Notes under the pieces: model-generated | Told to the model about the DNA's origin: nothing | Databases searched by the model: none | What the model saw: only the letters and a program-made list of their open reading frames with translations | Translations under genes and position numbers: made by a program | Source: a virus | Lineage: Duplodnaviria > Heunggongvirae > Uroviricota > Caudoviricetes | Length of the DNA: 64,000 bases | IMG/VR virus record: IMGVR_UViG_3300032007_000003 | Location: 32,001 to 96,000 of that record | Direction: 5' to 3' (one strand) | In this document: piece by piece, positions 6,659-22,174 of the stretch | How positions within the stretch are numbered: position 1 is the first letter of the stretch | Layout: every line of letters starts with the position of its first letter

Positions 6659-8334
6659 TGAAGAAAATATATCTAAAAGAAGATACAATCGCTAATGTTT
6701 TGAATAAGAGACTTTTACCTCAATTCCTATTCAAAAGTGTTAAGGCGCATGAAACATCATTGGGGGACAATAGTATGTTCCCTAGTGGTGGTGACTACCC
6801 TTTTGACTATACTTTACTAAAGGTTAGATTCGGTGAGGTGTGTGATGCGATAGAGGAATTGGGATTGGAGAGTCTTGACGAAGATTATCTTATGAGTGAG
6901 TTAAGTAATTCCCTCAAGATGTGTAAGGACATGGAAACACCTATTAGAGATACACTTGAGAAGATTTGCGAGAATGCCGTTAATAGATTGTTTGCAATCC
7001 CAGAGGAAATGCTTAACTTGAAATGTAAACTTGTAGATAAAATAAAGTTCAAGAATGCAATAAGATTGAAACCAGAATCGGATGATAAAATTACATATAC
7101 ATTCGATGATGTATCAGACATTGAACTTTTTGATAAATCAGTAGAGAAAAGACGTTTTATTGATTCATTAATTCAAGGTGCTGCATATACCTATTCAAAG
7201 ATATTAGGGTTGTATGTAGAGGACATCGATAAGATTAACAGAGACCTCATACCATTATACATGAAGATTACTGCAATCAACGATTATCTCCTTTTTACAA
7301 AGAAAGAAGAAATGAGTGATGCGAAACCAATGCAAGGTTCGTATGTTGAAGTACATCTTGGTGGTGTCGGTGAGAAAACCACGATAAAGGCACAAGGTAT
7401 TATATTTCCATTATTGCTTCAAGAGACCATTAGAGGGTTATTTGAACTGTTCTCAGCGCATGGATTACCAAGTAATAAGGAGAAAGCAATGTTCGTTGTT
7501 AAAAAGGCTGATTTTGTCCTTGCAGAGCCTTGGGACTTGAGATTTGGTGTTACACTATGGAATAAGATATTTGGCGGTGTTGAAGATACCAATATGATAC
7601 CATATATGTTTACAAGTCTTATTAAACAGTCAAATGAAGAATTCAGCGCAAGCGTGAAGGAAATCCTTTCAAATACGAAAAAAGGAAATGAGATAATCGA
7701 CCAATTAATGAGTGATGCTGAATATGATAATGGTTATCAGCAATTTACCAATAGAATAAATGCAAAGAATATTGATAAATCATTGATTAAAGATTCTTAT
7801 TTCACTGGAGCTGAGACAAATGGATATGAGATTGATTCAGATGAATCAGAGGGTGATGTAATCGAGGAAAACGAAGATGCAGATACAATGGGACAATATG
7901 AGGCAGCACCTCAGAAGCCTATCGAATATTATCAGCAATTGGTACAGTCAGCAACCGTAGAGAACATTGATTTCCTTGAGGGTAATGTTAATGGTGTCAC
8001 TGAGGACTTGATTGTAACTATCAATGGTGAGATAATGCCAAGACAGATGATTCTCCTTATGGCACAGAGCGTTAAGATTAGAATCAGCCCAGATGAGAGA
8101 GTTCCAATGCTTCAGATACACATTATATTGAATGAAGGAATCCAACGTTTGGGATTAGCGCCAAAGATATATACAAAGCTTATCTATGAGTTCGGTGCAA
8201 TCTATAGCGGAGAGGGAAGAAGAATAAATAAGGAACATATAGCAAAGGTTTATGCGAAATTAGCTCAAGACCCAAATATTTATGTATATCATGATGATAT
8301 GTGCTATATGGCAATGCTAAGACAAAATAATTGA
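6658..8334 (+). CDS. hypothetical virion protein with a C-terminal GNAT-like domain
   Basis: MKKIYLKE leader; C-terminal IHIILNEGIQRLGLAPKIY resembles GNAT motif A (QxxGxA). Confidence 0.55.
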   Translation: MKKIYLKEDTIANVLNKRLLPQFLFKSVKAHETSLGDNSMFPSGGDYPFDYTLLKVRFGEVCDAIEELGLESLDEDYLMSELSNSLKMCKDMETPIRDTLEKICENAVNRLFAIPEEMLNLKCKLVDKIKFKNAIRLKPESDDKITYTFDDVSDIELFDKSVEKRRFIDSLIQGAAYTYSKILGLYVEDIDKINRDLIPLYMKITAINDYLLFTKKEEMSDAKPMQGSYVEVHLGGVGEKTTIKAQGIIFPLLLQETIRGLFELFSAHGLPSNKEKAMFVVKKADFVLAEPWDLRFGVTLWNKIFGGVEDTNMIPYMFTSLIKQSNEEFSASVKEILSNTKKGNEIIDQLMSDAEYDNGYQQFTNRINAKNIDKSLIKDSYFTGAETNGYEIDSDESEGDVIEENEDADTMGQYEAAPQKPIEYYQQLVQSATVENIDFLEGNVNGVTEDLIVTINGEIMPRQMILLMAQSVKIRISPDERVPMLQIHIILNEGIQRLGLAPKIYTKLIYEFGAIYSGEGRRINKEHIAKVYAKLAQDPNIYVYHDDMCYMAMLRQNN

Positions 8335-8382
8335 ATATCTTGTGATGTTTATTAGAAAAATAACGAATTAATACGTATTAAT

Positions 8383-8934
8383 ATGAATAAGAAAATAATA
8401 AGACTTACAGAATCAGACCTTCATAATATTGTGAAGGAATCTGTTAATAAAATCCTTTCTGAAATGGATTGGAAAACCTATGCAAATGCTGAAAAGAAAA
8501 TGCGTGGTGAACGTGGAGATGCAGACTATTGGAGGAATAAAGGAGTAAAAGGCTTTGATGCTATAAGAAAAGCAGCAAATGCAAGAGAACGTGCTAAAAA
8601 CTTTGGTGATGCTGCAAAAGATGCTTTCAATAGAGATTTTGGTTATCAGCAAGGAGAACATTATTATGATGACGATTATCAACGTGTTGGTATGGGTGGA
8701 GATTTTGGATATACAGATGAGTTTGCTCCACACGCTGCTGGTTGGAGACACGATGGTGTTGCAAGCTTAAAGCGATTCCCTCACGGTGTATATACAACAG
8801 AAAGAACACCAGAGGAATTCTTTGGAAATAATACCGATGCGGTTCAAGCCTATAATAAAGCAAAAGATGAAGTAGGAAATTATAAGAAAGGTAACTATGA
8901 TTACCAAAGTGGAAAAGGTTGGGTTAAGAAATAA
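8383..8934 (+). CDS. RLTESDL-leader protein (putative internal head protein)
   Basis: N-terminus MNKKIIRLTESDLHNIVKESVNKILSE. Confidence 0.7.
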   Translation: MNKKIIRLTESDLHNIVKESVNKILSEMDWKTYANAEKKMRGERGDADYWRNKGVKGFDAIRKAANARERAKNFGDAAKDAFNRDFGYQQGEHYYDDDYQRVGMGGDFGYTDEFAPHAAGWRHDGVASLKRFPHGVYTTERTPEEFFGNNTDAVQAYNKAKDEVGNYKKGNYDYQSGKGWVKK

Positions 8935-8939
8935 TACAT

Positions 8940-8972
8940 AAGAGCAATCACACTGTTGGTTGCTCTTTTTTT
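8940..8972 (+). terminator. rho-independent terminator
   Basis: aagagcaatca-cactgt-tggttgctctt followed by a T run. Confidence 0.7.
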
Positions 8973-9046
8973 ATTTACAAATATTTATAATTGAAATAAC
9001 TTTTCGGAATATTGTTATATTTATTTAAATTTATACTGTTACAATT

Positions 9047-10924
9047 ATGATTTACGATAGGCAAGAAATGAGTCGTGACTATGCCATGTGCTATGCCGAC
9101 AAATCAAGAATTACATTTATAGAAAAGTATTTTTCAACCTTTAATGCAACTAAGGGTAAGAAAACACAATTCCACTGTTTTCCACGTCAGAGGGCATTCC
9201 TCAAGGCTCTTGCGGAGAACAGAAACGTTGTTGCGATTAAACCAAGACAGTGTGGTATTACAACATTATCAAGCGCTTGGGCTGCTGCCCAGTGTGCATT
9301 TGCATCAGCAGAGGCACCTGAGACTGTGTTGTGTATTGCCAATAAGCTTGAGCAAGCGCAAGAAATTATCATCAAGGTAAGAGATTTCCTTGAGCAAGTT
9401 CCTAGATGGTATTGGGGTAACGAGTATTTCTCAGTTGACCCTAATTCAGAAAAAAACATTAAATCTATTTTTTTAAAGGATGCAAAAGGAGAATTAAAAT
9501 TGTTCAATGGTTGTAGAATCATTGCACGTGCATCTGGTCCTAATGCTTCTCGTGGTATCTCTGCTGTATCCGTCTTGATTCTTGACGAGGCAGCGTTTAT
9601 TGAGGAAGGTGTGGCTGCGTTTACCACTGCTGCTGCAACTATGGCATCTAACCCTAATTCTAAGACTGTTATGGTGTCTACCCCTAACGGTAGAGACGAG
9701 CTTTACTATAACACATATAGGCAAGCATTAAGCCATGAGAATAACTTTGTGGCTGTACAGTTCCGTTGGTATCAAGACCCAAGATTCAATAAGTATCTTG
9801 TGTGGAAGAAGAAAAATGAAGATACTGGTGAATGGGAGTTTGACCAAGACCCAATAATCGACAGTGAGGGAGGAGTGAAGTATGATGAGGAAAGGTGGGC
9901 TAGACTTGAACACAATGGTTGGAAGCCTACAGCACCTTGGTATGATGAAATGTGCAAGCAGTTCAACAATGACTCAATGAAGATTGCCCAAGAGCTTGAT
10001 GTATCGTTCATGGGTTCTGCTGACAACGTTGTTGCTCCAGAGTTCATTGAAATGCAAGAGAAGCTTAATACGAGAGAACCACTTGATGATTTCCATGACC
10101 CATTGGTTGAAGAGACTTGGTTCTGGAAGCGTCCAATGGAAGGACATCGTTATATTCTTGCATGTGACCCATCTAGAGGTGTGTCTGCCGATAGAACAGC
10201 TATTGAGATAATTGATATGGATGGTAGGGATGAGAATGGGCTACCGATTATCGAGCAAGTTGGAGAGTATGTTGGAAAGAAGTTGGGTGATGATATTGGA
10301 GCATTATGTTATCAATATGCAACAATGTATAATGATGCATTCATTGTCGTTGACTGTACTGGTGGTCAAGGAGATGCTGCCATATTAACACTTATAAACA
10401 TGGGTTATAAAAACATGTATTATGAGGATTCAAATCAAAAGACATATACAGTTCAGAGGTCAACAAAGAACTATGATGGATATACGGATAAGCTTCCAGG
10501 TTTCCACTTCCAAGGAAACCGTTATCCAGTACTTGCAAACTTCGCAGGTCTTGTTCGTAACAATGAGTTCAAAATTCGTTCAGCTAGGGTAATCAACGAG
10601 CTTGAGACTTGGATATTCAAGGGTGAGGCAGCTAGAATTGACCACCAAGACGGTGCTCATGACGATACGCTTACGGCATTGGCTATGGGATTGTTCGTTA
10701 TGCAGTACACTGTTAATAGGATACAAAATACCGCAAATAAGGATAAGGCTATTCTTAATGCGTATATGATGAATCGTGCAATCAGCATGAATAAACCAAA
10801 GATGAAGAGTGGAGAGACTATTGCGCCTAAGACTGGTTTACCTTTCTACAGTTCAAAGAAACGTATTGAGAAATATAGCAATATAGGTGGAAGTTGTATG
10901 TGGTTATTTGGAGGAGTTAAGTAA
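9047..10924 (+). CDS. terL: terminase large subunit (T4 gp17-like)
   Basis: KPRQCGITT Walker A, LILDEAAF Walker B, STPNG coupling motif, ACDPS and HDD nuclease motifs. Confidence 0.95.
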   Translation: MIYDRQEMSRDYAMCYADKSRITFIEKYFSTFNATKGKKTQFHCFPRQRAFLKALAENRNVVAIKPRQCGITTLSSAWAAAQCAFASAEAPETVLCIANKLEQAQEIIIKVRDFLEQVPRWYWGNEYFSVDPNSEKNIKSIFLKDAKGELKLFNGCRIIARASGPNASRGISAVSVLILDEAAFIEEGVAAFTTAAATMASNPNSKTVMVSTPNGRDELYYNTYRQALSHENNFVAVQFRWYQDPRFNKYLVWKKKNEDTGEWEFDQDPIIDSEGGVKYDEERWARLEHNGWKPTAPWYDEMCKQFNNDSMKIAQELDVSFMGSADNVVAPEFIEMQEKLNTREPLDDFHDPLVEETWFWKRPMEGHRYILACDPSRGVSADRTAIEIIDMDGRDENGLPIIEQVGEYVGKKLGDDIGALCYQYATMYNDAFIVVDCTGGQGDAAILTLINMGYKNMYYEDSNQKTYTVQRSTKNYDGYTDKLPGFHFQGNRYPVLANFAGLVRNNEFKIRSARVINELETWIFKGEAARIDHQDGAHDDTLTALAMGLFVMQYTVNRIQNTANKDKAILNAYMMNRAISMNKPKMKSGETIAPKTGLPFYSSKKRIEKYSNIGGSCMWLFGGVK

Positions 10925-10972
10925 AGTAACAAATATTTATATTTATAAATAAATTTATTATTTTTTATAAAA

Positions 10973-13015
10973 ATGGCAAAAAAGAATACAGTTTTTCAAG
11001 CCCTAGATAAAGCTATAACTGGACGTTGGACTTCTCCATCTACATCAATAGCAGAGCCACATATTAATTCATATGATTTGACTCCTAGTGATGGTAAGAG
11101 TGTAATATATAGGACAACAGATAGGGATGACTATTTACAGAAGAAACTAGAGCTTCAGCAAGATAAGTACTTGAAGGATAGATGGGTTAAGACTAATGTT
11201 AACTTGGCTGTAACCGCATATAGTGGTTTGAACAATGTCAAGTTAATGTATCGTGATGGTGACTTAATGGATGCATTTCCAGAGATTAGTGCAGCACTTG
11301 ATATTGTTTCTGAGGAAAGTACGATTGTTAATGACAAGGGAATGGTTGTTAATGTTTACTCAAAGTCAGATAGAATCAAGAGTATTCTTGAAGACTTGTT
11401 TGTAAATAGGCTTAACATTCAATTAACTGGTCAGATGATTATCCGTGCTATGTGTAAGTATGGTAATCAATTTATGCTATTGGATATTGACCATAAGAAT
11501 GGTGTTAAGGGTTGGAAACAGCTTCCAGTATTCAATATGGAGAGAATTGAGAATGGGGTTCAAAATCCTTATGGTGCTGGTTCATCAATCGCTGTTAACG
11601 GTGTAACAAAGGATGATGCAGACCTATCAACTCAATTTATTTGGTTGGATGATAATAATTCACAAGTACCATTCAGAGATTGGCAGATTGCTCATTTTAG
11701 ATTGCTCACAAACTCATTGTATTTACCTTATGGCGTGAGTTACCTTAATGGCGCACGTAGGCATTGGAGGATGCTTTCATTAATGGAAGATATGATGCTT
11801 ATCTATCGTCTTGAACGTTCAGTTGAAAGACGTGTGTATAAGATTTTCGTTGGAGCTATTGATGATGCTGATGTTGAAGCATATGTAGAGAGAATTGCCA
11901 ATGAGTTTAAGAGAACACCGATTATTGACCCAGTAACTGGTCAAGTTGACCTTCGTAAGAATATTCTTGGAATTGATAATGATATATTTATTCCAGTACG
12001 TGATGAGAATGCACCAACTCCAATTGATACGCTTTCAGCAGGTCAGAACATGACAGCTCTTGATGATATCAAGTTTGTGCAGAATAAGGTGTTGACCTCA
12101 CTTAGAATACCTAAGTCATTCTTGAACTTCGAGGATGGCGTTGGTGATGGTAAGAACCTTGCACTTATGGATATTCGTTTCACTAGAACAGTAAACAGAA
12201 TACAGCAAGCATTCTTGATGGAACTTACAAAGGTGGCTTCAATACACTTGTTCTTGTTAGGTTTCAATGATGAGTTGACCAATTTCTCATTGACGATGAA
12301 TAATCCATCAACACAAGCTGAAGGATTGGAGATTGAGAATATGCAGAAGAAGATTGATGCTGTTAGAGATGCAGTATCAGACCCAGGTAATGGTCTTCCA
12401 GTTATGTCACAAACTCGTGCTCTTAAGCAGATTATGAAATGGTCTGAAAAGGAGATTAAGGAGAACCTTGAAGAGATACGTCTTGAGAAGGGTATTGCTG
12501 CTGAACTTGAGAAAACCACACAGATTATCAAGAAGACTGGTATCTTCGATACCGTTGATAGAATCTATGGTGAACCAGGAGCAGAATACATGGATGATAT
12601 GCAAGGCGGTCAAGGTGGCATGGACGCTGGTGGAGGCGCAAGCGGTGGAATGGGAGCGCCACCACCTCCAATGGGAGACGCACCTGACATGGGTGGAGAT
12701 ATGGGAGCGCCAATGGATGATGGTAGTGGAATGGCACCAGCCCAAGAGGGTTCAATGCCAACAGCCGATATGGGAAGTGACCCAAATGCGCCAATGGAGT
12801 CTAGATATTCAAACAAGCCACTGATAAATGAGCAGAAGAACAATAAGCTTGATGAAATGTTTAATAAATATCTTTCAACTTTGAAAGAGCGCAATGAGAA
12901 ACATAGGGAAACTGAATACAAGCGTGCAGATGTTTATGATGAGGATTCATTGCTAATTAATGAAGAATTTGATAAGATGATTGATGAACTTGGTAAGTTT
13001 GTTGATAACGAATAA
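10973..13015 (+). CDS. portal protein (T4 gp20-like)
   Basis: LMEDMMLIYRLERSVERRVYKI, IDTLSAGQN, DIRFTRTVNRIQ; directly follows terL. Confidence 0.93.
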   Translation: MAKKNTVFQALDKAITGRWTSPSTSIAEPHINSYDLTPSDGKSVIYRTTDRDDYLQKKLELQQDKYLKDRWVKTNVNLAVTAYSGLNNVKLMYRDGDLMDAFPEISAALDIVSEESTIVNDKGMVVNVYSKSDRIKSILEDLFVNRLNIQLTGQMIIRAMCKYGNQFMLLDIDHKNGVKGWKQLPVFNMERIENGVQNPYGAGSSIAVNGVTKDDADLSTQFIWLDDNNSQVPFRDWQIAHFRLLTNSLYLPYGVSYLNGARRHWRMLSLMEDMMLIYRLERSVERRVYKIFVGAIDDADVEAYVERIANEFKRTPIIDPVTGQVDLRKNILGIDNDIFIPVRDENAPTPIDTLSAGQNMTALDDIKFVQNKVLTSLRIPKSFLNFEDGVGDGKNLALMDIRFTRTVNRIQQAFLMELTKVASIHLFLLGFNDELTNFSLTMNNPSTQAEGLEIENMQKKIDAVRDAVSDPGNGLPVMSQTRALKQIMKWSEKEIKENLEEIRLEKGIAAELEKTTQIIKKTGIFDTVDRIYGEPGAEYMDDMQGGQGGMDAGGGASGGMGAPPPPMGDAPDMGGDMGAPMDDGSGMAPAQEGSMPTADMGSDPNAPMESRYSNKPLINEQKNNKLDEMFNKYLSTLKERNEKHRETEYKRADVYDEDSLLINEEFDKMIDELGKFVDNE

Positions 13016-13018
13016 GAT

Positions 13019-13048
13019 AAAGGCGTGGCAATAACTGTCACGCTTTTT
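13019..13048 (+). terminator. rho-independent terminator
   Basis: aaggcgtggca-ataac-tgtcacgcttttt. Confidence 0.7.
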
Positions 13049-13084
13049 CTGTTAAACATGATATTTATAAGAAATAATGTTTGA

Positions 13085-15382
13085 ATGAAAAATAAAAGAA
13101 TACTAGAGTATTTTGAGGGCAATCCAGATACTGTATACGATACAACTAATCAAGTTACTTGGAAGTGGGATAATGAAATGTCAATATCTTTCGGATATTT
13201 CCCTATTTCATTGGACAACGAGTATCTCTTTATGACTGGTTCAACAACCCATCTTATGATTGGAGCGCAAGCAGCAAAGAAATTGATGGGAAAGGCAATC
13301 AGTCATATAAAGGATACCTATATTCCTTGGATTGAGAGACAGTGTTATGGAAAGTCATATTGTCGTGGAAGGATATGGACATTTGATACTGATAAGTATC
13401 CTAGCATCATGGCATTTTGGTATTTGCCAAGTTCTAGAATGCTTAGAAAGATTGTAAATGAACTTAATATAGACCCATACAACTATATATTGGTAGTGGA
13501 AGACTCCCAGAATGCATTTGAGGAAAATCCAACAGTAGCCGAATACATAGAGTCAAATAGTAATGGTGATGATGGATTTGATGAAATCAACGAGCCATTT
13601 GCCATTGACAAGAGGGTTATTGAGATTATAAGAAGCTATAACGATACCCAAAAAAATTGGCAGACTCAGAAGGAAAAGGAAGGTTGGAAGTCACTTGCTC
13701 AGAGAAATGCGACATTGTATCAAGAGAACAGACAAAGGGTAGATGAGTATTATGAAGGAGACCCAGATACGATTGATGAGTTTGATGATAATGATGGTGG
13801 GCTTATAAAAAGTATAAACTATAGAGATAAGAATGTAATATCATTTGGATTTTTTCAAACATCATTAGATGGTGGAAAGGAATTCATATATAAGTTAGAT
13901 ATTTGCCATCATGATATTTGTAAAGATATTGCAAACAAAATCATAGGAAAGGCAATGGCTTCAGAAGACATTGAGGACTATGAGGTGAAAGAGGTTGCTT
14001 CATCAATATATTCCGCAGCAGCATATAAGGGACGTATTTTCTTGGATGCAAATATAATTACAACATGGTCTAGAGTATCTTCAGCAACACTTCAAGAATT
14101 GCTTAATTTAATGGGTGGTGTTGAAAAGTGGAAACATCTAAGTTATATAGTTCCAAGATGGTATGATAGTATCACTTGGGAAACAGATGAAATATCACAG
14201 AAAAACATCAATGTACTTGAATATATATCCAAAGGTATAGATGCGGATGAAAGTAGGGATAAAAAGCAAATGGAAAGAGACTTTAAGCCATTGGTTGATG
14301 AATGGATTATTGACACTATAAGGGAATATAATAGACCAAATTCAACATTGGCAGCAAAGACTGCAAAGTTGGGTAACATGACGATTGCGCAATACAATTC
14401 ATTAATACATCAGGAAGAGAAAGAACCTAAACAAACTATAAAAGAAAATAATATAAATATGAAAGATAATAAGTATCAAGACTATATTAACATAATGTCT
14501 GAGGCATTACAGAAGGATGACTTCAAGGCATACGAATATGTTAAAGAAATTCTAGATGAAGCTATTGAAGAGAGCAAGCATGATAAAGAGCTTATGAACG
14601 AAATGAATACAACCAATTTCGGTGTGTTGAACCATATCTTCGAGAATGAGCTTCCAACTCTCATCAAGACAAACAAAAAAGCTGTAAGGAATGTCATTAA
14701 GACCATTAAGGAGGATAAGAACCTTATCAACCAGTTCAACTTCTACAATGTCATCAAGGAGCAGTACAATGGAAGTCATGCTGACATGATTTCATCTAAG
14801 GAAGCTCTTGAGAACCTTGCAAAGATTGTTGGTGAGAACATTGACCTCAAGACCGTAAAGGCTTCAAACAAGAAGTTAAGAAACGTGATGATTGAGAGTG
14901 GTGTTAAACCAAGTAACTTTGTTGATGAGGAATCAAGAAAGCTTTATGAAAATGGTGATGTAATCCTCACATCAAAGAGAAATACAAATAACATGATTTC
15001 TCTTGTTGAGAGTTATGATGCTGTTTGCAAATGGATGGATGCACACAAATCAGATAAGGTTAAGGATGGAAAAAATCCAGATGAAATGATTAGAGAATTT
15101 GAGGAGAAACTAAAAGATAACCTTAATGAATCTGAAATATCATTCGTACAACAGATAACTGATTTCAGAACACCAATTGCAGAGCAGAGAAAAGAAAAAC
15201 TATTTAATAAGTTCAAGAATGAATGCATCAGTAAGATTAATGAAATGTTGAAGGAGGATGCAGAAAATGTTGAACTTAAGGGATTGAGTGACCAGATTAA
15301 TGAAATGTCTTTTAATAAGGAAACCATTGTTAAGGACATCGCAAAGTTACTTGAGATAAGAGATATTTTGATGGATGATTAA
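13085..15382 (+). CDS. modular head-associated protein (duplicated N-terminal domain plus helical C-terminal domain)
   Basis: two EY(F/Y)EG(N/D)PDT...ISFG(Y/F)F...GRI repeats; helical C-terminal part from MKDNK (14459). Confidence 0.65.
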   Translation: MKNKRILEYFEGNPDTVYDTTNQVTWKWDNEMSISFGYFPISLDNEYLFMTGSTTHLMIGAQAAKKLMGKAISHIKDTYIPWIERQCYGKSYCRGRIWTFDTDKYPSIMAFWYLPSSRMLRKIVNELNIDPYNYILVVEDSQNAFEENPTVAEYIESNSNGDDGFDEINEPFAIDKRVIEIIRSYNDTQKNWQTQKEKEGWKSLAQRNATLYQENRQRVDEYYEGDPDTIDEFDDNDGGLIKSINYRDKNVISFGFFQTSLDGGKEFIYKLDICHHDICKDIANKIIGKAMASEDIEDYEVKEVASSIYSAAAYKGRIFLDANIITTWSRVSSATLQELLNLMGGVEKWKHLSYIVPRWYDSITWETDEISQKNINVLEYISKGIDADESRDKKQMERDFKPLVDEWIIDTIREYNRPNSTLAAKTAKLGNMTIAQYNSLIHQEEKEPKQTIKENNINMKDNKYQDYINIMSEALQKDDFKAYEYVKEILDEAIEESKHDKELMNEMNTTNFGVLNHIFENELPTLIKTNKKAVRNVIKTIKEDKNLINQFNFYNVIKEQYNGSHADMISSKEALENLAKIVGENIDLKTVKASNKKLRNVMIESGVKPSNFVDEESRKLYENGDVILTSKRNTNNMISLVESYDAVCKWMDAHKSDKVKDGKNPDEMIREFEEKLKDNLNESEISFVQQITDFRTPIAEQRKEKLFNKFKNECISKINEMLKEDAENVELKGLSDQINEMSFNKETIVKDIAKLLEIRDILMDD

Positions 15383-15390
15383 AGATTACA

Positions 15391-15419
15391 AATGCAGTCA
15401 GAAATGGCTGCATTTTTTT
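15391..15419 (+). terminator. rho-independent terminator
   Basis: aatgcagtca-gaaa-tggctgcatttttttt. Confidence 0.75.
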
Positions 15420-15482
15420 GTGTTTCCCTCTTGATTTTTACGAAAATTTTTGTTATATTTTAAAAAGAAAAATATAGCATAA

Positions 15483-15917
15483 ATGAAAAGATTAAATAAA
15501 GAATATAAGTTAGATGTGTGCAATCATATTTCATTAAAATATGGTACGGTAAATAGAAATAACCCACAAGTTGTATATGTAAGTGGAAAGTGTTGGGTAT
15601 CCCCACAAAGAGATATGGATTACGGTAATGTTATTGATAATATAGAAAAAACGATGAGGAAGAATATAAAGTCTTTTTTAATTGATGAAATAAATTTTGA
15701 TAATCGTTTTATATTGGACTTTGATATTAATATAGATGGTCTTGTACCAAGAGAGAAGAAATTCCTTTCCTTTGATTTCTATTTGCGTCAAAATGAAAAT
15801 AATAAGAAGAAGTTGTCAGAGTTAAATGATTTATTTAAGAGAAAGGTTAGTACAATTGCCAATAATCTAGTATATTCTTTTAAGGAAAATGATTTTACAA
15901 TAAATAAGAAGAAATAA
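15483..15917 (+). CDS. hypothetical protein
   Basis: 144-aa ORF with an AT-rich leader. Confidence 0.65.
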   Translation: MKRLNKEYKLDVCNHISLKYGTVNRNNPQVVYVSGKCWVSPQRDMDYGNVIDNIEKTMRKNIKSFLIDEINFDNRFILDFDINIDGLVPREKKFLSFDFYLRQNENNKKKLSELNDLFKRKVSTIANNLVYSFKENDFTINKKK

Positions 15918-15952
15918 ACTCTCAAGAATATTTATTATAAAAATTAGGTATC

Positions 15953-16282
15953 ATGAAGAAGGTAATAAGACTAACAGAATCAGAATTAAAAGCAATTGTT
16001 GAAAATTCTGTAAAAAGAATATTAAGAGAAGACGTGTTGGGAAATGATTGGCGTGAGAACGACAACGTATTGAATAACTATGAACCATTCGAGGGTGAGG
16101 AACATTCTACACCATTTGACGGTATGACGAATGACCATGACTTTGGTATAACTGGTGAACCACTTGACCAAACTCATGATGATATTAATCAAGATGATAT
16201 TGTGAATGGTGATGAAGATGAATGGGCACAAGATAGAATTGACCTTATGGCAAACTATGATGATTTTCCACCAATGGGATAA
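15953..16282 (+). CDS. RLTES-leader acidic protein (putative internal head protein)
   Basis: MKKVIRLTESELKAIVENSVKRILRE. Confidence 0.7.
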   Translation: MKKVIRLTESELKAIVENSVKRILREDVLGNDWRENDNVLNNYEPFEGEEHSTPFDGMTNDHDFGITGEPLDQTHDDINQDDIVNGDEDEWAQDRIDLMANYDDFPPMG

Positions 16283-16288
16283 AAAAAT

Positions 16289-16320
16289 AAGCGAGACTAG
16301 GTTTAGCCTCGCTTTTTTTT
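16289..16320. terminator. bidirectional terminator between convergent genes
   Basis: A-rich run, gcgag..tag / tagcctcgc stem, then T run. Confidence 0.6.
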
Positions 16321-16324
16321 ATTT

Positions 16325-16723
16325 TTAGATGTTCTTAATTCTTACTGTAAAGCTCTTGATGTATGTGTTTCTTACACAAACGAATTCTATATTATCTTTC
16401 ACTGGTGCATAAGCTTTAATTCTCTCCATGAAGGTTTCTCTATCTTTTGATGTATAATCACTCATAGGATAGCAGATATACTCTGTATAACGCCCCATAT
16501 CCTTTGAATTCATATGTCTCCATCCGCATTCCCTTTCAGCCCTTAATAGAGCTTCAATAGCTCTACCATTTGCAGATGAACGATATTCATCAACTTGGTC
16601 TTGGTTAAAAAATAGGTCAGTTTGTCCGTTTGGATAAACACCAATCTCGTTTATAATTCTAGTAACTGATTCATTTATCAAACCATGCAAATCGCTTTCG
16701 GTTAATCTAATAACTTTCTTCAT
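16325..16723 (-). CDS. RLTESDL-leader protein (putative internal head protein)
   Basis: MKKVIRLTESDLHGLINESVTRIINE. Confidence 0.7.
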   Translation of the reverse strand: MKKVIRLTESDLHGLINESVTRIINEIGVYPNGQTDLFFNQDQVDEYRSSANGRAIEALLRAERECGWRHMNSKDMGRYTEYICYPMSDYTSKDRETFMERIKAYAPVKDNIEFVCVRNTYIKSFTVRIKNI

Positions 16724-17678
16724 TTATCTTATTTTTTATGTTATAAAGTTCTTTATCTAAAATTATATTTTCATTAGTATATATACCATTGAATCGCTTT
16801 GATGTTATTTTTTCCTTCCATCTTTTTGATATAACATACAACATCTTTATGTTGTTTTCATCGCATAATTCTTTTTTTGTTATATCTAGTCTAATACGTT
16901 TATCAAGATTTGATTTTAGTTTTAAATTTCCACTAAACTCTTTAAAATGTTGTTCTCCTTGACATTCAATAGCTAATTTAAATTCTGGAATATAAAAGTC
17001 TAATGTTTGTTTACCTAACCAATTAAAATTTTTTTGTCTTTCGAATTTAATGTTATTCTCAATTAGAAAATTTCTAACAATTCTTTCCAATTTACTAGAT
17101 TTACATATTGGACACCCTTCTCCTTGCAGATGCTTATCTGGAGTTTGCCAAAACTCACCGTGAATTGGACATATAATACAAACTTTTGTAGAATTGTTTA
17201 TATAATCAACTTTATCATAAATGTAGTCATCTTTATGAATATTTTTAAATTCTTTAATAACCTCTTCATTAGTTTTGTTTCTACCAACACATTTTGGGCA
17301 ACCTTGTTTTCTTAACGTATGTTTTTCTGGTGATTGCCAAAACTCTCCATGTATGGGACACATAATACAAACTTTTTCTTTTCTGTTTTTGTAAACAACT
17401 TTTGAATAGTCATATTTGTCACCATGAATTGATTTTGCTTCTTCTATAAATTGTTCTGTTGTTTTTCTAGTTGTGTTACCTCTTCTTTCATCATAACACT
17501 TTTGGCAACTAGAACCATTATGCAAAGAATTAGGTTTAGTCCTAAAGGTGTGATTATGTTTTTTACATCTTACTATTACATAGTTCTTATCACCATTATA
17601 TTCAGATAAAAGTTCTAATTCTGGATGTTCAATCAATAAACGTTCTTTAAATTCTTCTGTTGTTAATTTCTTTGGCAT
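16707..17678 (-). CDS. free-standing homing endonuclease (DUF723-like Zn repeats plus Vsr/PD-(D/E)XK-like C-terminus)
   Basis: repeated HGDKYDYSKV/CPIHGEFWQ/GCPxC units and LDFYIP...IECQGEQH; lower GC than flanks. Confidence 0.8.
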   Translation of the reverse strand: MPKKLTTEEFKERLLIEHPELELLSEYNGDKNYVIVRCKKHNHTFRTKPNSLHNGSSCQKCYDERRGNTTRKTTEQFIEEAKSIHGDKYDYSKVVYKNRKEKVCIMCPIHGEFWQSPEKHTLRKQGCPKCVGRNKTNEEVIKEFKNIHKDDYIYDKVDYINNSTKVCIICPIHGEFWQTPDKHLQGEGCPICKSSKLERIVRNFLIENNIKFERQKNFNWLGKQTLDFYIPEFKLAIECQGEQHFKEFSGNLKLKSNLDKRIRLDITKKELCDENNIKMLYVISKRWKEKITSKRFNGIYTNENIILDKELYNIKNKINEESY

Positions 17679-17745: not shown

Positions 17746-18447
17746 CTAATTTTTCAAAATATTTTTAATTTTTTCTATTTTTTCTGAAATTATGGGTTTA
17801 TTATTTAATCTATCAGCATTCTCAAGCCAAGGTTGTAAACCTTCTTCCCCATTTAACGTTATGAAAGCATTATTGGTGCTAGGGTCACTGACTACATCCC
17901 AACATATAAGTTCAAAATCTTCACCCACGATATATTGTCCAAGTTTTTGTTCGACTGAGCCAACACCTCTTGATGAAACGCCAATCTTAATACCATTCAT
18001 AAGTAGATTAGCCATTTCGTCACCACGTGTGCTTACGATACCATATTTTCTAAATCCATATGAAGTATTGATTTCAAGTTTTCCGACTAATGTTCTACCT
18101 TCCCAATGAAGTTCAATAATATTTATTGCGATTCTTCCCAAATCGATTGTTGATTCTGCTGGATGATTCAATTCACCAATTGCTCTTCTATCATTAATCT
18201 TTTCTTGATATATTTCTACTTGTTTCTTCAATACACCTTCTGGGTATATTCTACCATTTGCGTTTTTAACGCCAAATTTCTGAAATACAGCATCCACAAT
18301 AAATGGATATGGGACACTCCATCCTTCATCTTCAAGGCTTTCTTTAATCTGCTTTGGATTTTTGATATACATGTATCCATCATTTTCAATAAGGATTCCA
18401 TGTCCAGTCTTACCTTCCTTTATTATCTCTAATTCAGCTTTTTTCAT
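17746..18447 (-). CDS. prohead core protease (T4 gp21-like)
   Basis: NANGRIYP, GELNHP, GVSSRGVGS, WDVVSDPS. Confidence 0.93.
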   Translation of the reverse strand: MKKAELEIIKEGKTGHGILIENDGYMYIKNPKQIKESLEDEGWSVPYPFIVDAVFQKFGVKNANGRIYPEGVLKKQVEIYQEKINDRRAIGELNHPAESTIDLGRIAINIIELHWEGRTLVGKLEINTSYGFRKYGIVSTRGDEMANLLMNGIKIGVSSRGVGSVEQKLGQYIVGEDFELICWDVVSDPSTNNAFITLNGEEGLQPWLENADRLNNKPIISEKIEKIKNILKN

Positions 18448-18619
18448 CACTAATATTTTTTATTAATAAATATTTGTCCTTTTCTAAATATTTATATATT
18501 AGTCAATAAAACCAAATAGTAAAATATCTATATTTCCATTATTTTTAGGGGTATATAGAATTTTTTTGGTATTTTTGGTATATTTATAATTAAAATAATG
18601 TATTAAATCTATTTTCTAA

Positions 18620-20068
18620 ATGAGCAAAAATATTAGAAGCAAAGTAGTTAGAGAATCTTTATTGGATTACAACACACTCGCAAATTCTTTGAAGGAAAAT
18701 ACTGAGAGTGCAGTTAAAGCTCTTTTGGGCGAGGCTGTACGTGATACATATGCCAAGTTATTGTCTGAAGACGATGACAAGGACTACGAAGAGGGTGAAG
18801 TGGAAGATACTAGTTCTGATATTGCAAACGATGCAGAATCTAGCGATGTTGTTGACGATGGTCAAGCAGACGCAGACGCTGGTATGGACGCTGAAGGTGG
18901 CGATGTAGAAGGTGGAGAACTTGAGGGTGGTGAAGAGCCAATCGAGGGTGACCCAGTGGATGACGGAGCTGTTGAAGGCGAAGGAGGCGATGAATGGGCA
19001 GAGTTTGATAAATATAAGGTATCAGACGATGAGTATGACTTTACAAATGCGGAAGACGAGGAAATCGTAAAGGTTTACAAATTAATGAAGAATGATGACC
19101 AAATCCTTGTACATAAAGATGACAATGGAAATGTGAACATTCAAGACAATGAAACTGGAGCTGAGTACCTAATCAATCTTGGTGATAATGATGATTCATT
19201 TGATTCAAGTGACGATGAAGTAATTACTGATGACAGTGCAGAAGATGATTTTGAAAATAACATGGATGATATGAATGAATCAACAGAGAGAATGTTTGAA
19301 CTTGTACTAGAGTATGATTCAAACGTAGGCTACACTGACAATTATCAGAAGAAGGATGTAATGACAAATCCAGGTATGTCAGAGCCAGGTAAAAATGTAA
19401 ACGATTGGGATGCAGGTGTACCAAAGGGCGATTCAAAGCCTTGGTCTGGATACCCAGGTAAGAAAAATAAGGCAGATAAACCATTCAACGCTGGTAAAGG
19501 TAAAGAACTCGAAGAGGAAGAGAACCTTGAGGAATCAGCAGCAGAGTGCGGTGGAAGAATGGGTGCTCATGGTAGAATGATGGGAACGAAATCTCATAAC
19601 CCTATTAAGGCAAAGAAGAATTCTCCAATGAACCAACATCACGTTTCAACTGCTGGTGAGTACGATGGCAATCCAACCAATGAGAGCTTCATTAAGAGAG
19701 CGAATGCAGTTCTTGAGGAAAACAAGGAGCTTAAATCTACCTTGACTGACCTTATGGAGCAGTTGAAGAAGGTATCTGTAACAAACCACAATCTTGCACA
19801 GATTATTAAGTTGGTTTCTGAGAACACAACCTCTAAAGATGAGAAGAAGGAGATTATCAACAGATTCAAGAATGAGGGTAAGACCATCGAAGCTTCTCAA
19901 GCACTTTATGAGTCAATCAGTCGTGAGTTGCAGAAGACCAACAAAATGAACATCACTGAAGAGAAGAGTCTTACAGTTGAGGGTTCACAGAAAATCAATG
20001 AGACACCTATTTATAAGTCACAAGATTTGTTAGATTCTCTTGATTTAATGCATAGAATGATGAAATAA
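18620..20068 (+). CDS. prohead scaffold/core protein (gp22-like)
   Basis: acidic protein with a C-terminal coiled coil, directly upstream of the major capsid gene. Confidence 0.75.
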   Translation: MSKNIRSKVVRESLLDYNTLANSLKENTESAVKALLGEAVRDTYAKLLSEDDDKDYEEGEVEDTSSDIANDAESSDVVDDGQADADAGMDAEGGDVEGGELEGGEEPIEGDPVDDGAVEGEGGDEWAEFDKYKVSDDEYDFTNAEDEEIVKVYKLMKNDDQILVHKDDNGNVNIQDNETGAEYLINLGDNDDSFDSSDDEVITDDSAEDDFENNMDDMNESTERMFELVLEYDSNVGYTDNYQKKDVMTNPGMSEPGKNVNDWDAGVPKGDSKPWSGYPGKKNKADKPFNAGKGKELEEEENLEESAAECGGRMGAHGRMMGTKSHNPIKAKKNSPMNQHHVSTAGEYDGNPTNESFIKRANAVLEENKELKSTLTDLMEQLKKVSVTNHNLAQIIKLVSENTTSKDEKKEIINRFKNEGKTIEASQALYESISRELQKTNKMNITEEKSLTVEGSQKINETPIYKSQDLLDSLDLMHRMMK

Positions 20069-20140: not shown

Positions 20141-22174
20141 ATGAAAGAATTTTTATCAGCTGGTGTAGTTGGAAATATTGAGTACAACGCACAAAAACAG
20201 ATACGTGAGAGCATTCAGAACCGTTGGGACAATCTTGGTTTCACCGAGGGTCTTCCAGAGGGTATCAAGGAGAATGTTGCTACATTGTATGAGAATGAGG
20301 CAAAGCACTTGATTTATGAGGCTACTGCTTCTGATAACAGTGGTTCTTTTGAAACCGTTGTTTTCCCAATTATTAGACGTGTATTCAGCAAGCTTCTTGC
20401 TAATGACATCGTATCAGTACAGGCTATGAACCTTCCAGTAGGTAAGTTGTTCTTCATTCTTCCTGTAACTTCAGAGAGAGAGTGGGAACTCCCAGCAGAT
20501 GCAACTGGTGCAACTCCTGGTGATATTATCGATGGAACAACTGGTCGTCATAAGGGTCTTATGGGTTATGACCGTGTAAACCGTAATAAGGAAGGTCGTG
20601 TAGAGCCAAGATATTATCTCCCAGATGAGACAATTAATGAACTTCAGAATGCATGGTATATTCCAGTTCTTAGTGACGAGGATACCTATGACACATTCGA
20701 GGCAGCAAAAGAAGCAGCAGAGGCAGCTGGTCTTAATCCAACAGCTATCCGTAAGGTAGGTCCTGAGGTAACTCAGTACTTCCAGAAGTCACTTTACGAT
20801 TTGTTCTACAATGACTTCTTGTATGACAACTCTAAGGGTAAGGTTACTATCAAGGTTGGTGAGGCAATCCCAGTATTCTTGACCCCTGGTGGTGTTCGCC
20901 CATTCGGTGCTGACAATCTTAATCAGTACTTCAAGAGTGGTTTCGATGGTACTATCCGTAACGTCATCCTTGAGATTGATGGTTTCTCTTCATTCAACGC
21001 TTCTAAGTTGACTGGTCCTGACGGAAACGAAATGGACACTGAAGGATTCCTTGCTTCTCTTAAGGTTATCACTCAGAAGGAATTTGCAGCAGCTAATGTT
21101 CCTGGTTCAGAGAGCGTAATGACTGCATCTTTCAGAAAGTTTGAGTCTGTTCCATTCAGAGTTGTTACTCAGAAGTATGGTAAGGGTATTGTAGAGTACG
21201 GTGCAGCTTGCGATGCAGAGGGTAAGATGTATATTGAACTTGACTTGGCTAAACCAGTAGTTCAGCAAGCAGGTACAATCGATGGTTATGTTGGTGTTGA
21301 CGCAGCAGCTCTTGATGCAGCTATCGTTAAGAGTGGTAGCACTATCGATTATGAGGCAACTAAGGAGAACATGAAGGCTTTGTTCAAGATTGCTTGGGCA
21401 CAGTATGATTCTCTTGAGCTTGAGACCGAAATCGGTGAGGTTAGCTTCAAGCTTGATTCAGTAACCGTATCAGTTGAGGAGAGAAAGCTTCGTGCAACAT
21501 GGTCTCCAGAGTTGGCACAAGACGTTTCTGCATTCCACAACATTGACGCAGAGGCTGAGTTGACAGCTATCCTTTCAGAGCAGATTGCAGCAGAAATTGA
21601 CCGTGAGATTCTTCGTGACTTGCGTAAGGGTGCTCCTTGGCAAGCTCGTTGGGATGTTAATGGTTGGAGACGTATGGCTGCATTCTCAACCAACTATACT
21701 CAGAAGGATTGGAATCAGGAGTTGATGACTAAGATTAACCAGATTTCTGCACAGATTCACAAGTCTACACTTCGTGGTGGTGCTAACTTCATTGTAGTAT
21801 CTTCAGAGATTAGTGCGTTGTTCGATAACCTTGAGTACTTCCACGTTTCTGACGCTAGCGCAGAGAGCGACCAGTACAACATGGGTATCGAGAAGATTGG
21901 TGCTCTTGGTGGACGTTACACCGTTTACCGTGACCCATATTCTCCACACTGGTCAATGATTATTGGTCATAAGGGTAAGTCACTTCTTGACACAGGTTAC
22001 ATCTATGCACCATATGTGCCAATGCAGTTGACCCCGACAATGTATAATCCATTCAACTTTGCACCTGTTAAGGGTATTATGACGAGATATGCAAAGAAGA
22101 TGGTAAATAATCGTTACTACGGACATGTTCGTGTAGATGGTCTTGTACATTGGAGCATTAATGAATTCAGATAA
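20141..22174 (+). CDS. major capsid protein (T4 gp23-like)
   Basis: VSVQAMNLPVGKLFF, RKLRATWSPELAQD, AEIDREIL, YAPYVPM, PVKGIMTRYA. Confidence 0.97.
   Translation: MKEFLSAGVVGNIEYNAQKQIRESIQNRWDNLGFTEGLPEGIKENVATLYENEAKHLIYEATASDNSGSFETVVFPIIRRVFSKLLANDIVSVQAMNLPVGKLFFILPVTSEREWELPADATGATPGDIIDGTTGRHKGLMGYDRVNRNKEGRVEPRYYLPDETINELQNAWYIPVLSDEDTYDTFEAAKEAAEAAGLNPTAIRKVGPEVTQYFQKSLYDLFYNDFLYDNSKGKVTIKVGEAIPVFLTPGGVRPFGADNLNQYFKSGFDGTIRNVILEIDGFSSFNASKLTGPDGNEMDTEGFLASLKVITQKEFAAANVPGSESVMTASFRKFESVPFRVVTQKYGKGIVEYGAACDAEGKMYIELDLAKPVVQQAGTIDGYVGVDAAALDAAIVKSGSTIDYEATKENMKALFKIAWAQYDSLELETEIGEVSFKLDSVTVSVEERKLRATWSPELAQDVSAFHNIDAEAELTAILSEQIAAEIDREILRDLRKGAPWQARWDVNGWRRMAAFSTNYTQKDWNQELMTKINQISAQIHKSTLRGGANFIVVSSEISALFDNLEYFHVSDASAESDQYNMGIEKIGALGGRYTVYRDPYSPHWSMIIGHKGKSLLDTGYIYAPYVPMQLTPTMYNPFNFAPVKGIMTRYAKKMVNNRYYGHVRVDGLVHWSINEFR

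Follow-up and report, generated by a model that had tools for sequence, protein, structure and literature searches.

Why do three genes for otherwise unrelated proteins, lying near the portal and head protease genes of a phage, begin with almost the same 26 residues? The question is raised by a 64,000-nt stretch of viral DNA (the window), bases 32001-96000 of IMG/VR record IMGVR_UViG_3300032007_000003. This record is a single contig of 412,435 bp and 34% G+C, and its source is an uncultured T4-like phage of rumen Prevotella. The near-identical starts of about 26 aa were first noticed in an initial annotation of the window, and the open reading frames (ORFs) at 8383-8934 (+), 15953-16282 (+), and 16325-16723 (-) match the sequences quoted there letter for letter; they encode proteins of 183 aa (P0001), 109 aa (P0002), and 132 aa (P0003). 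On balance we favor the hypothesis that the 26-residue leader is a portable prohead-targeting propeptide, similar to the capsid-targeting sequence (CTS) of phage T4, and that it is removed by the S77 protease, which would probably also shred the tag. The direct basis of this hypothesis is the anatomy of the leader, its portability, the selection on it at the peptide level, the family of the protease, synteny, and the late-type promoters; from these we infer docking to the scaffold, cutting, retention, and injection.

A strict motif, searched in all six frames of the window, occurs at these three leaders and nowhere else. In the whole genome a profile search finds nine strong copies (E 1e-12 to 1e-16), which is far beyond chance, and two further weak internal copies in one 661-aa protein. 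Seven of the nine strong copies begin two or three residues after the first methionine, one stands behind a DUF3008 domain, and one lies within a 474-aa ORF. The bodies behind the three leaders in the window are unrelated, as the annotation had stated, and none of the three proteins has a curated family above threshold in Pfam, PHROGs, or NCBIfam. Four weaker leaders that it listed, at 1189, 6658, 35999, and 52717, did not survive: they are detected neither by a 9-sequence profile nor, at E ≤ 6 among the genome's 539 proteins, by a 363-sequence profile. The clustering around portal and protease that it described is true of three of the nine strong copies and not of the other six, which lie at genome 114-162 kb. 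The 661-aa protein (L004:3803-5788, genome 387803-389788) has a Dps/DUF5856-like N-terminus, and its weak leader-like repeats stand at residues ~353 and ~515 (E about 1e-3). In L001:14446-15099 (genome 122446-123099) and P0223, a 57-aa DUF3008 domain is fused ahead of the leader, with V-x-Glu directly before the leader; this architecture is seen again in metagenomic proteins with a P0001-type body.

The leader has been conserved as a peptide. When the nine copies are aligned, Leu-Thr-Glu, Leu13, and the final Glu are invariant. The copies within the genome share 60% DNA identity, 57% of codon pairs for identical residues differ in the codon, and Ser is encoded by TCN as well as by AGY. Because the residues have been kept at this level of DNA identity through synonymous and two-step codon changes, we conclude from the alignment that selection acts on the leader peptide and not on the DNA. 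A DNA element in place of a peptide was considered and rejected, as synonymous sites are free to vary.

The conservation has a sharp end. A degenerate leader pattern gave 140 unique instances in IMG/VR loci (153 ORFs). In these, each position up to Glu26 carries 3-4 bits of information (3.5 bits at Glu26), and the value is less than 0.6 bits at residue 27 and beyond, with Gly, Asp, Ser, and Asn as the commonest residues there. In 363 instances, position 26 is occupied by Glu in 332 and by Asp in 3, and the same set has three [LIVM]-x-Glu motifs, at residues 7-9 (94%), 16-18 (75%), and 24-26 (91%), the first two mostly followed by Ser. The leader of P0001, which is one residue longer, has [LIV]xE at residues 8-10, 17-19, and 25-27, with none in its body. 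In form the leader joins a short strand-like KIIRL segment to a mildly basic, amphipathic helix behind it, and its mean net charge is +2.2; a ribbon-helix-helix reading of the strand and helix was dropped, since nothing is conserved after the first helix. Searches with the leader gave no family match in Pfam, PHROGs, or NCBIfam and nothing in the ESM Atlas, and a literature search found no paper with the string RLTESDL or the term DUF3008.

These features recall the internal proteins of T4. In that phage IPI, IPII, IPIII, and Alt carry a CTS that is removed by the prohead protease gp21, and T4-type (S77) head proteases cleave at (L/I)-x-Glu; the precedent invoked in the initial annotation thus agrees with the literature (PMC9026906, PMC5694885). 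A 10-residue CTS is enough for loading and its processing needs the Glu; propeptides may also be C-terminal, and several cuts within propeptides are common (PMC9026906, PMC5694885). Like the CTS, the leader is an N-terminal peptide common to unrelated proteins that ends in (L/I)-x-Glu, in a phage with an S77 protease and a gp23 capsid protein, and its cargo varies between relatives. The likeness is one of features. At 26 residues the leader is longer than the 10-20 residues of the T4 CTS (PMC5694885), although a 16-residue short form exists in some orthologues, and it has three cutting motifs where the CTS has one. It is also far more conserved and widespread (9-16 genes per genome, thousands of clusters), occurs in internal, C-terminal, and tandem positions as well, and in many cases precedes acidic rather than basic bodies.

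Propeptides with several protease motifs have been described in giant phages. In SPN3US, phiKZ, and 201phi2-1, N-terminal propeptides of head and ejection proteins hold several such motifs and are thought to yield small fragments that exit the head; in SPN3US the diverged paralogues gp53 and gp54 have retained identical N-termini, and C-terminal processing also occurs (PMC5694885). Many of those propeptides exceed 100 residues, they come from a few paralogous families, and their motif is (A/S/G)-x-Glu, whereas the leader is one short module on dozens of unrelated bodies. The principle is known from T4, and the form, the scale, and the link to an insertion sequence (IS) described below are new.

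The enzyme that would process the leader is encoded in the same window. The gene at 17746 matches Peptidase_S77 and lies beside a gp23-type capsid gene, which bears out its annotation as a gp21-like protease, and by its sequence it belongs to a T4-type head module (table 1). We propose it as the leader-processing enzyme on the strength of this family match. Between the protease and capsid genes lies the gene for a protein with an acidic N-terminus and [LIV]xE at residues 12, 26, 38, and 50; by analogy with gp22 we take this to be a putative scaffold or core protein, which would be the docking partner of the leader. The capsid protein aligns with T4 gp23 such that the T4 maturation cut would map near residues 45-60, and four [LIV]xE motifs, at residues 40, 44, 51, and 60, surround this position, including I-Y-E followed by Ala.

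The link between leader and protease was examined in viral contigs sampled by the protease and not by the leader. Where the protease is at least 68% identical, a leader gene lies within about 3 kb in 13 of 17 loci, and in six of those 13 it begins at or within 9 nt of the end of the protease gene, with at least four different bodies. Among 63 loci with distant proteases (≤54% identity, other habitats), the tag is absent bar one marginal half-match. This distribution (13 of 17 close loci, 0-1 of 63 distant ones) indicates that the tag is clade specific and tied to the head-maturation operon. Five large relatives of 317-401 kb have 10-16 leader copies each; four of these genomes encode an S77 protease, and the fifth is incomplete and breaks off beside two leader genes.

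Leader genes also appear to be expressed with the head genes. In the whole genome 39 genes have the motif ATATTTATA at 16-66 nt upstream, among them those for the large terminase subunit (TerL), the portal, a 765-aa protein, and the putative scaffold, and 34 of its 47 plus-strand occurrences are within 60 nt of a gene start; on this distribution it is a candidate late promoter element. Four of the nine leader genes have their own copy (≤1 mismatch), and at least three others (genome 40383, 122446, and 136151) lie 1-48 nt behind genes that carry an exact one. Since the motif stands upstream of leader genes or of closely preceding genes, late expression seems likely, and the placement of these genes in late-motif operons by the initial annotation is upheld.

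The tag is widespread in uncultured viruses. Of the proteins of public metagenomes clustered at 50% identity, 6,277 cluster representatives match the nine-sequence profile at E ≤ 0.001, and 608 still do so at E ≤ 1e-10. The top of this list is enriched in proteins with two or three copies, one N-terminal and others internal or C-terminal. Many internal copies still start with M(N)KK and have an x-Glu-Ser motif just before them, and to judge by these junctions the multicopy proteins look like fused tandem cassettes. In the IMG/VR set, 120 of the 140 instances are strictly N-terminal, 13 are ambiguous, and 7 are internal, and 151 of the 153 ORFs have a single copy. Overall, about 90% of copies stand at the N-terminus.

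The bodies behind the leader are diverse and poor in cutting sites. Those of 119 N-terminal instances fall into 80 BLASTP clusters, with a median length of 105 aa. Asp, Gly, Gln, Asn, and Trp are frequent in them and Ile, Leu, and Val scarce; of the 119 bodies, 47% are clearly acidic. Their [LIV]xE density is 0.95 per 100 aa, compared with 1.85 for the proteome, and P0001 and P0002 have no such motif outside the leader. A Pfam search with 123 representatives and 7 longer members gave only scattered subthreshold matches and no toxin, effector, or recurring domain. The P0001 body belongs to a large unnamed family (197 homologues at E ≤ 0.001, many full length), and its AlphaFold2 (AF2) model is a long helical hairpin with a small sheet; Foldseek found no informative solved structure, and a wide VIA-align search, made for P0001 only, returned a generic helical hairpin (Z ≤ 6.2). 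P0220, which had looked like an RNA-ligase cargo, was set aside, as it is fused to the C-terminal half of a P0001 body and has no leader. In the AF2 model of P0003, leader residues 9-26 are helical, stand apart from the confident body, and have a predicted local distance difference test score (pLDDT) below 50; Foldseek found no informative match for this model. Orthologues of P0003 carry either the 26-aa leader or the 16-aa short form, and both end in L/I-x-Glu, after which the body starts with the same IGG-VYP. A leader followed by EDVLGNDWR, that is, a gene of the P0002 type, is found beside the protease in at least seven related loci. By analogy, the P0002 body would occupy the place of the small T4 core proteins gp67 and gp68, and the acidic P0002 type, with its fixed place beside portal and protease, could be part of the core and not an effector.

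Under our hypothesis, the leader genes would be transcribed late, and the leader helix would dock the nascent protein on the acidic scaffold or core as the head shell closes. Cleavage by the S77 protease would follow, behind the Glu of as many as three [LIVM]-x-E sites (residues 9, 18, and 26), and would shred the tag and free the body inside the head. Folded bodies poor in [LIVM]-x-E would remain and could exit with the DNA, and very acidic, disordered bodies might serve as core filler like T4 gp67 and gp68. Short helical peptides are also known to address varied cargo to the inside of HK97-fold shells in the case of encapsulin cargo-loading peptides and of phage coat and scaffold helices. 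Encapsulin tags are, however, usually C-terminal and uncleaved, and they are unrelated in sequence to the leader.

Several observations weigh against such a propeptide. [LIV]xE is a short and common motif, and Glu9 is as invariant as Glu26, so that the requirement for Glu could be structural. The leader helix of the P0001 model has a pLDDT of 75-87 and, if the model is right, may therefore pack on the body. Six of the nine copies are distant from the head genes and lie among helicase, glycosyltransferase, HNH, and SbcC-like genes, and single copies are found in Prevotella chromosomes with no capsid genes nearby. Near distant S77 proteases the tag is missing (0-1 of 63 loci), so it does not accompany this protease family in general. 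None of the deposited phage records carries it (megablast and tblastn gave nothing useful in 50,697 phage records), which leaves the hypothesis with no cultured carrier. Finally, internal and C-terminal copies occur with nothing behind them, and a pure leader would not need these. The idea of a portable tag, as put forward in the initial annotation, holds insofar as the leader is a separable N-terminal module on unrelated bodies that ends in [LIVM]-x-E and is syntenic with the protease, and it is qualified by these internal and C-terminal copies. Such copies had not been noted in that annotation, nor had the three cutting motifs or the copies beside IS1595 transposases in Prevotella chromosomes.

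Much of this opposing evidence would fit a leader that is never removed, namely a stable docking or oligomerization helix that links many small late proteins to a single conserved hub outside the prohead core; a phage chaperone, a host protein, and the replication or transcription machinery are candidates for this hub. The extreme conservation of residues over thousands of proteins fits a specific protein partner, and the internal, tandem, and C-terminal copies, the position of most copies in this genome among nonstructural genes, the fairly confident helix in the P0001 model, and the presence of the tag in bacterial chromosomes can all be counted for such a helix. A stable helix nevertheless leaves unexplained why conservation ends at the Glu after [LIVM]-x, why Asp is avoided there, and why the bodies are poor in the motif. 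Nor does it account for leader genes being tightly syntenic with the head protease gene and starting almost at its end, or for short and long leaders both ending in LxE. We regard it as unlikely.

The leader behaves as part of an exchangeable cassette. Comparison with an IMG/VR relative of 412,753 bp (L114) shows that window 7274-8453 is 89% identical, with the likeness stopping three codons before the end of the leader, and that 8940-15392 is 90% identical. Between these flanks the 486-nt P0001 body (8454-8939) has been swapped for an unrelated 769-nt body in L114, and the likeness returns at the terminator hairpin. Since the bodies vary and promoter, leader, and terminator stay conserved, the block doubles as homology arms through which bodies are exchanged. 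Polymorphic-toxin cassettes, with their conserved N-terminal part, exchangeable toxin domains, and adjacent immunity genes, show a similar exchange of bodies, but no toxin domain was found here in 123 representatives and 7 longer members.

It could be asked whether expression and recombination are the main role of the block. The late promoter, untranslated region, well-translated first 26 codons, and terminator would then be what is maintained, and the peptide would have no address function. The exact swap of the 8383 body between leader and terminator, with flanks 89-90% identical, is as expected for such a cassette, as are the Prevotella copies, whose DNA likeness stops at the last leader codons, and the DNA match of promoter, leader, and terminator of the 8383 gene to IS-borne cassettes. 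Yet residues that are kept at 60% DNA identity point to the peptide as the target of selection, copies inside a protein or at its C-terminus are of no use for starting translation, and a homology arm has no need of an invariant Leu-Thr-Glu. We consider it quite improbable that the cassette function is the whole explanation.

The bacterial copies deserve separate consideration. A degenerate DNA pattern for IRLTESDLHxIV, searched in 596 Gb of bacterial genomes with a chance expectation of about 0.15, matched 19 stretches, 18 of them in rumen Prevotellaceae or Bacteroidales; the nineteenth is on a 3-kb contig binned as an alphaproteobacterial metagenome-assembled genome, with 35% G+C like the phage. 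Each bacterial genome has one or two leader copies. Two isolates are among them, Segatella bryantii DSM 11371 and Prevotella sp. MA2016, in which the copies are flanked by a glycoside hydrolase, a kinase, and other ordinary genes. At 11 of the 19 loci the leader gene directly adjoins an IS1595 transposase gene, or what remains of one, in convergent orientation. The bacterial loci resemble each other in DNA over two blocks: the first starts at about -130 and extends to the last leader codons, and the second is the transposase. Between the two lies a variable body. Upstream of the N-terminal bacterial copies stands GTGATATTTATTAGAAAAAT, which is the late-type motif of the phage.

The same block is found in the phage. 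Window 8337-8451, which comprises promoter, untranslated region, and leader, is 86-88% identical in DNA to the IS1595-linked block of Prevotella, and 37 nt of the terminator of the first cassette are 92% identical to a stretch behind IS-linked leader genes in Prevotella. The phage 8383 gene has no counterpart to the outermost 65-80 nt of the bacterial block. No clear terminal inverted repeats of an IS were found around the leader gene beyond weak, GGC-initiated inverted repeats of 9-11 nt at the predicted outer ends of two loci. By tblastn there is no IS1595 transposase anywhere in the 412-kb phage genome, and hence none by the three leader genes of the window. IS1595 elements are known as "transporter IS" with passenger genes, and the Prevotella leader gene stands tail to tail with a DDE_Tnp_IS1595 transposase; in the window only the 8383 gene matches the IS-borne cassette, in its promoter, leader, and terminator. 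From these sequence blocks we read the bacterial loci as the result of an IS1595 element having captured a phage cassette and taken it as a passenger into host chromosomes.

The reverse, in which the family belongs primarily to the Prevotella IS1595 element as its passenger, serves the bacterium or transposition, and was acquired by the phage secondarily, is very hard to sustain: the 11 transposase-linked loci, the two isolate-chromosome copies flanked by a glycoside hydrolase and other housekeeping-type genes, and the transposases or remnants beside leader genes in four viral contigs speak for it, but bacterial genomes have one or two copies compared with 9-16 per phage, this phage genome has no IS1595 transposase, the phage's late-type motif lies upstream of the bacterial copies, the 8383 gene lacks the outer 65-80 nt as expected if an IS captured a phage cassette, and the 19 matches in 596 Gb of bacterial genomes stand against more than 582 candidates in viral contigs (looser pattern; 139 confirmed by tblastn).

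In one viral contig, L026 (IMG/VR, 135,815 bp, classed viral), a full-length IS1595 transposase at 6991-7959 lies about 2-3 kb from a leader gene, and L018, L022, and L028 have remnants of a transposase 300-900 nt behind their leader genes. In Prevotella sp. MA2016 (L099:5795-6823, -) and also in L104 and L086, an unannotated N-terminal domain of ~200 aa is followed by the full leader and a variable tail; the DNA of L099 and L104 is 76-82% identical through the end of the leader and unrelated beyond.

If IS1595 did carry the propeptide into Prevotella, a further scenario can be imagined, to which we give little credence. The IS-borne gene, under the control of the late promoter of the phage, would be silent until a megaphage infects, and its tagged product would then be loaded into the heads of the progeny, either as a stowaway that sabotages the particle or as a rider to the next cell; the tag would be a self-shredding label made of three protease sites.

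Should the leader prove to be a targeting propeptide, it would mark thousands of unannotatable proteins of rumen and gut megaphages as virion internal by sequence alone, and the tagged proteins would be probable first-strike proteins against host defenses. It would extend the principle of the T4 CTS to a long, modular, triple-site form, and it would be a ready handle with which reporters or enzymes could be packaged into Bacteroidota phages. How cargo repertoires of this kind turn over is shown by the exact exchange of bodies between leader and terminator and by the likely capture of the cassette by an IS1595 element that moves between phage and Prevotella chromosomes.

Table 1. Leader cassettes, head genes, and promoter-like elements in the window (positions are those of the window).
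Feature	Position	Strand	Evidence or remark
Promoter-like and 5' untranslated block of leader gene 1	8337..8382	+	degenerate copy of the late-type motif inside
Leader 1, 27 aa, MNKKIIRLTESDLHNIVKESVNKILSE	8383..8463	+	profile E 6e-15
Body 1 (P0001), 156-aa folded domain, large unnamed family	8464..8934	+	AF2 mean pLDDT 89, predicted template modeling score (pTM) 0.80
Terminator hairpin closing cassette 1	8940..8975 (hairpin 8940-8967)	+	stem-loop and T run
Large terminase subunit (TerL)	9047..10924	+	PHROG 2, E 3e-39
Portal protein	10973..13015	+	PHROG 213, E 8e-65
Leader 2, 26 aa	15953..16030	+	profile E 6e-13; late-type motif, 1 mismatch, 25 nt upstream
Body 2 (P0002), 83-aa very acidic tail, net charge about -22, starts DVLGNDWR	16031..16282	+	
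Body 3 (P0003), about 95-aa alpha/beta domain	16325..16645	-	AF2 pLDDT 80-91
Leader 3, 26 aa	16646..16723	-	profile E 4e-14
HNH homing endonuclease, free-standing, between protease gene and leader gene 3	16707..17678	-	PHROG 559, E 4e-66
Prohead protease, Peptidase_S77 (T4 gp21 family)	17746..18450	-	Pfam PF03420, E 2.4e-23, 83 bits vs cut-off 27; PHROG 207
Putative scaffold/core protein, acidic, no family match	18620..20068	+	gp22 position, between protease and capsid genes; exact late-type motif upstream
Major capsid protein, gp23 family	20141..22174	+	Pfam PF07068, E 8e-73; aligns to T4 gp23
ATATTTATA, examples	upstream of 9047, 10973, 13085, 18620		

The gene order around the protease differs between relatives. 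The HNH endonuclease gene, which overlaps the start of leader gene 3 by 17 nt, is missing from L114 (protease 84% identical), where leader gene 3 begins 8 nt after the protease gene. In the same comparison, DNA likeness is also lost across the final ~45 codons of the protease gene (17746-17880). In two large relatives, L082 (G002:265560-269036) and L084 (G003:21003-24167), the S77 protease match is in two pieces inside ORFs of 601-609 aa, a sequence arrangement that suggests an inserted element, possibly an intein.

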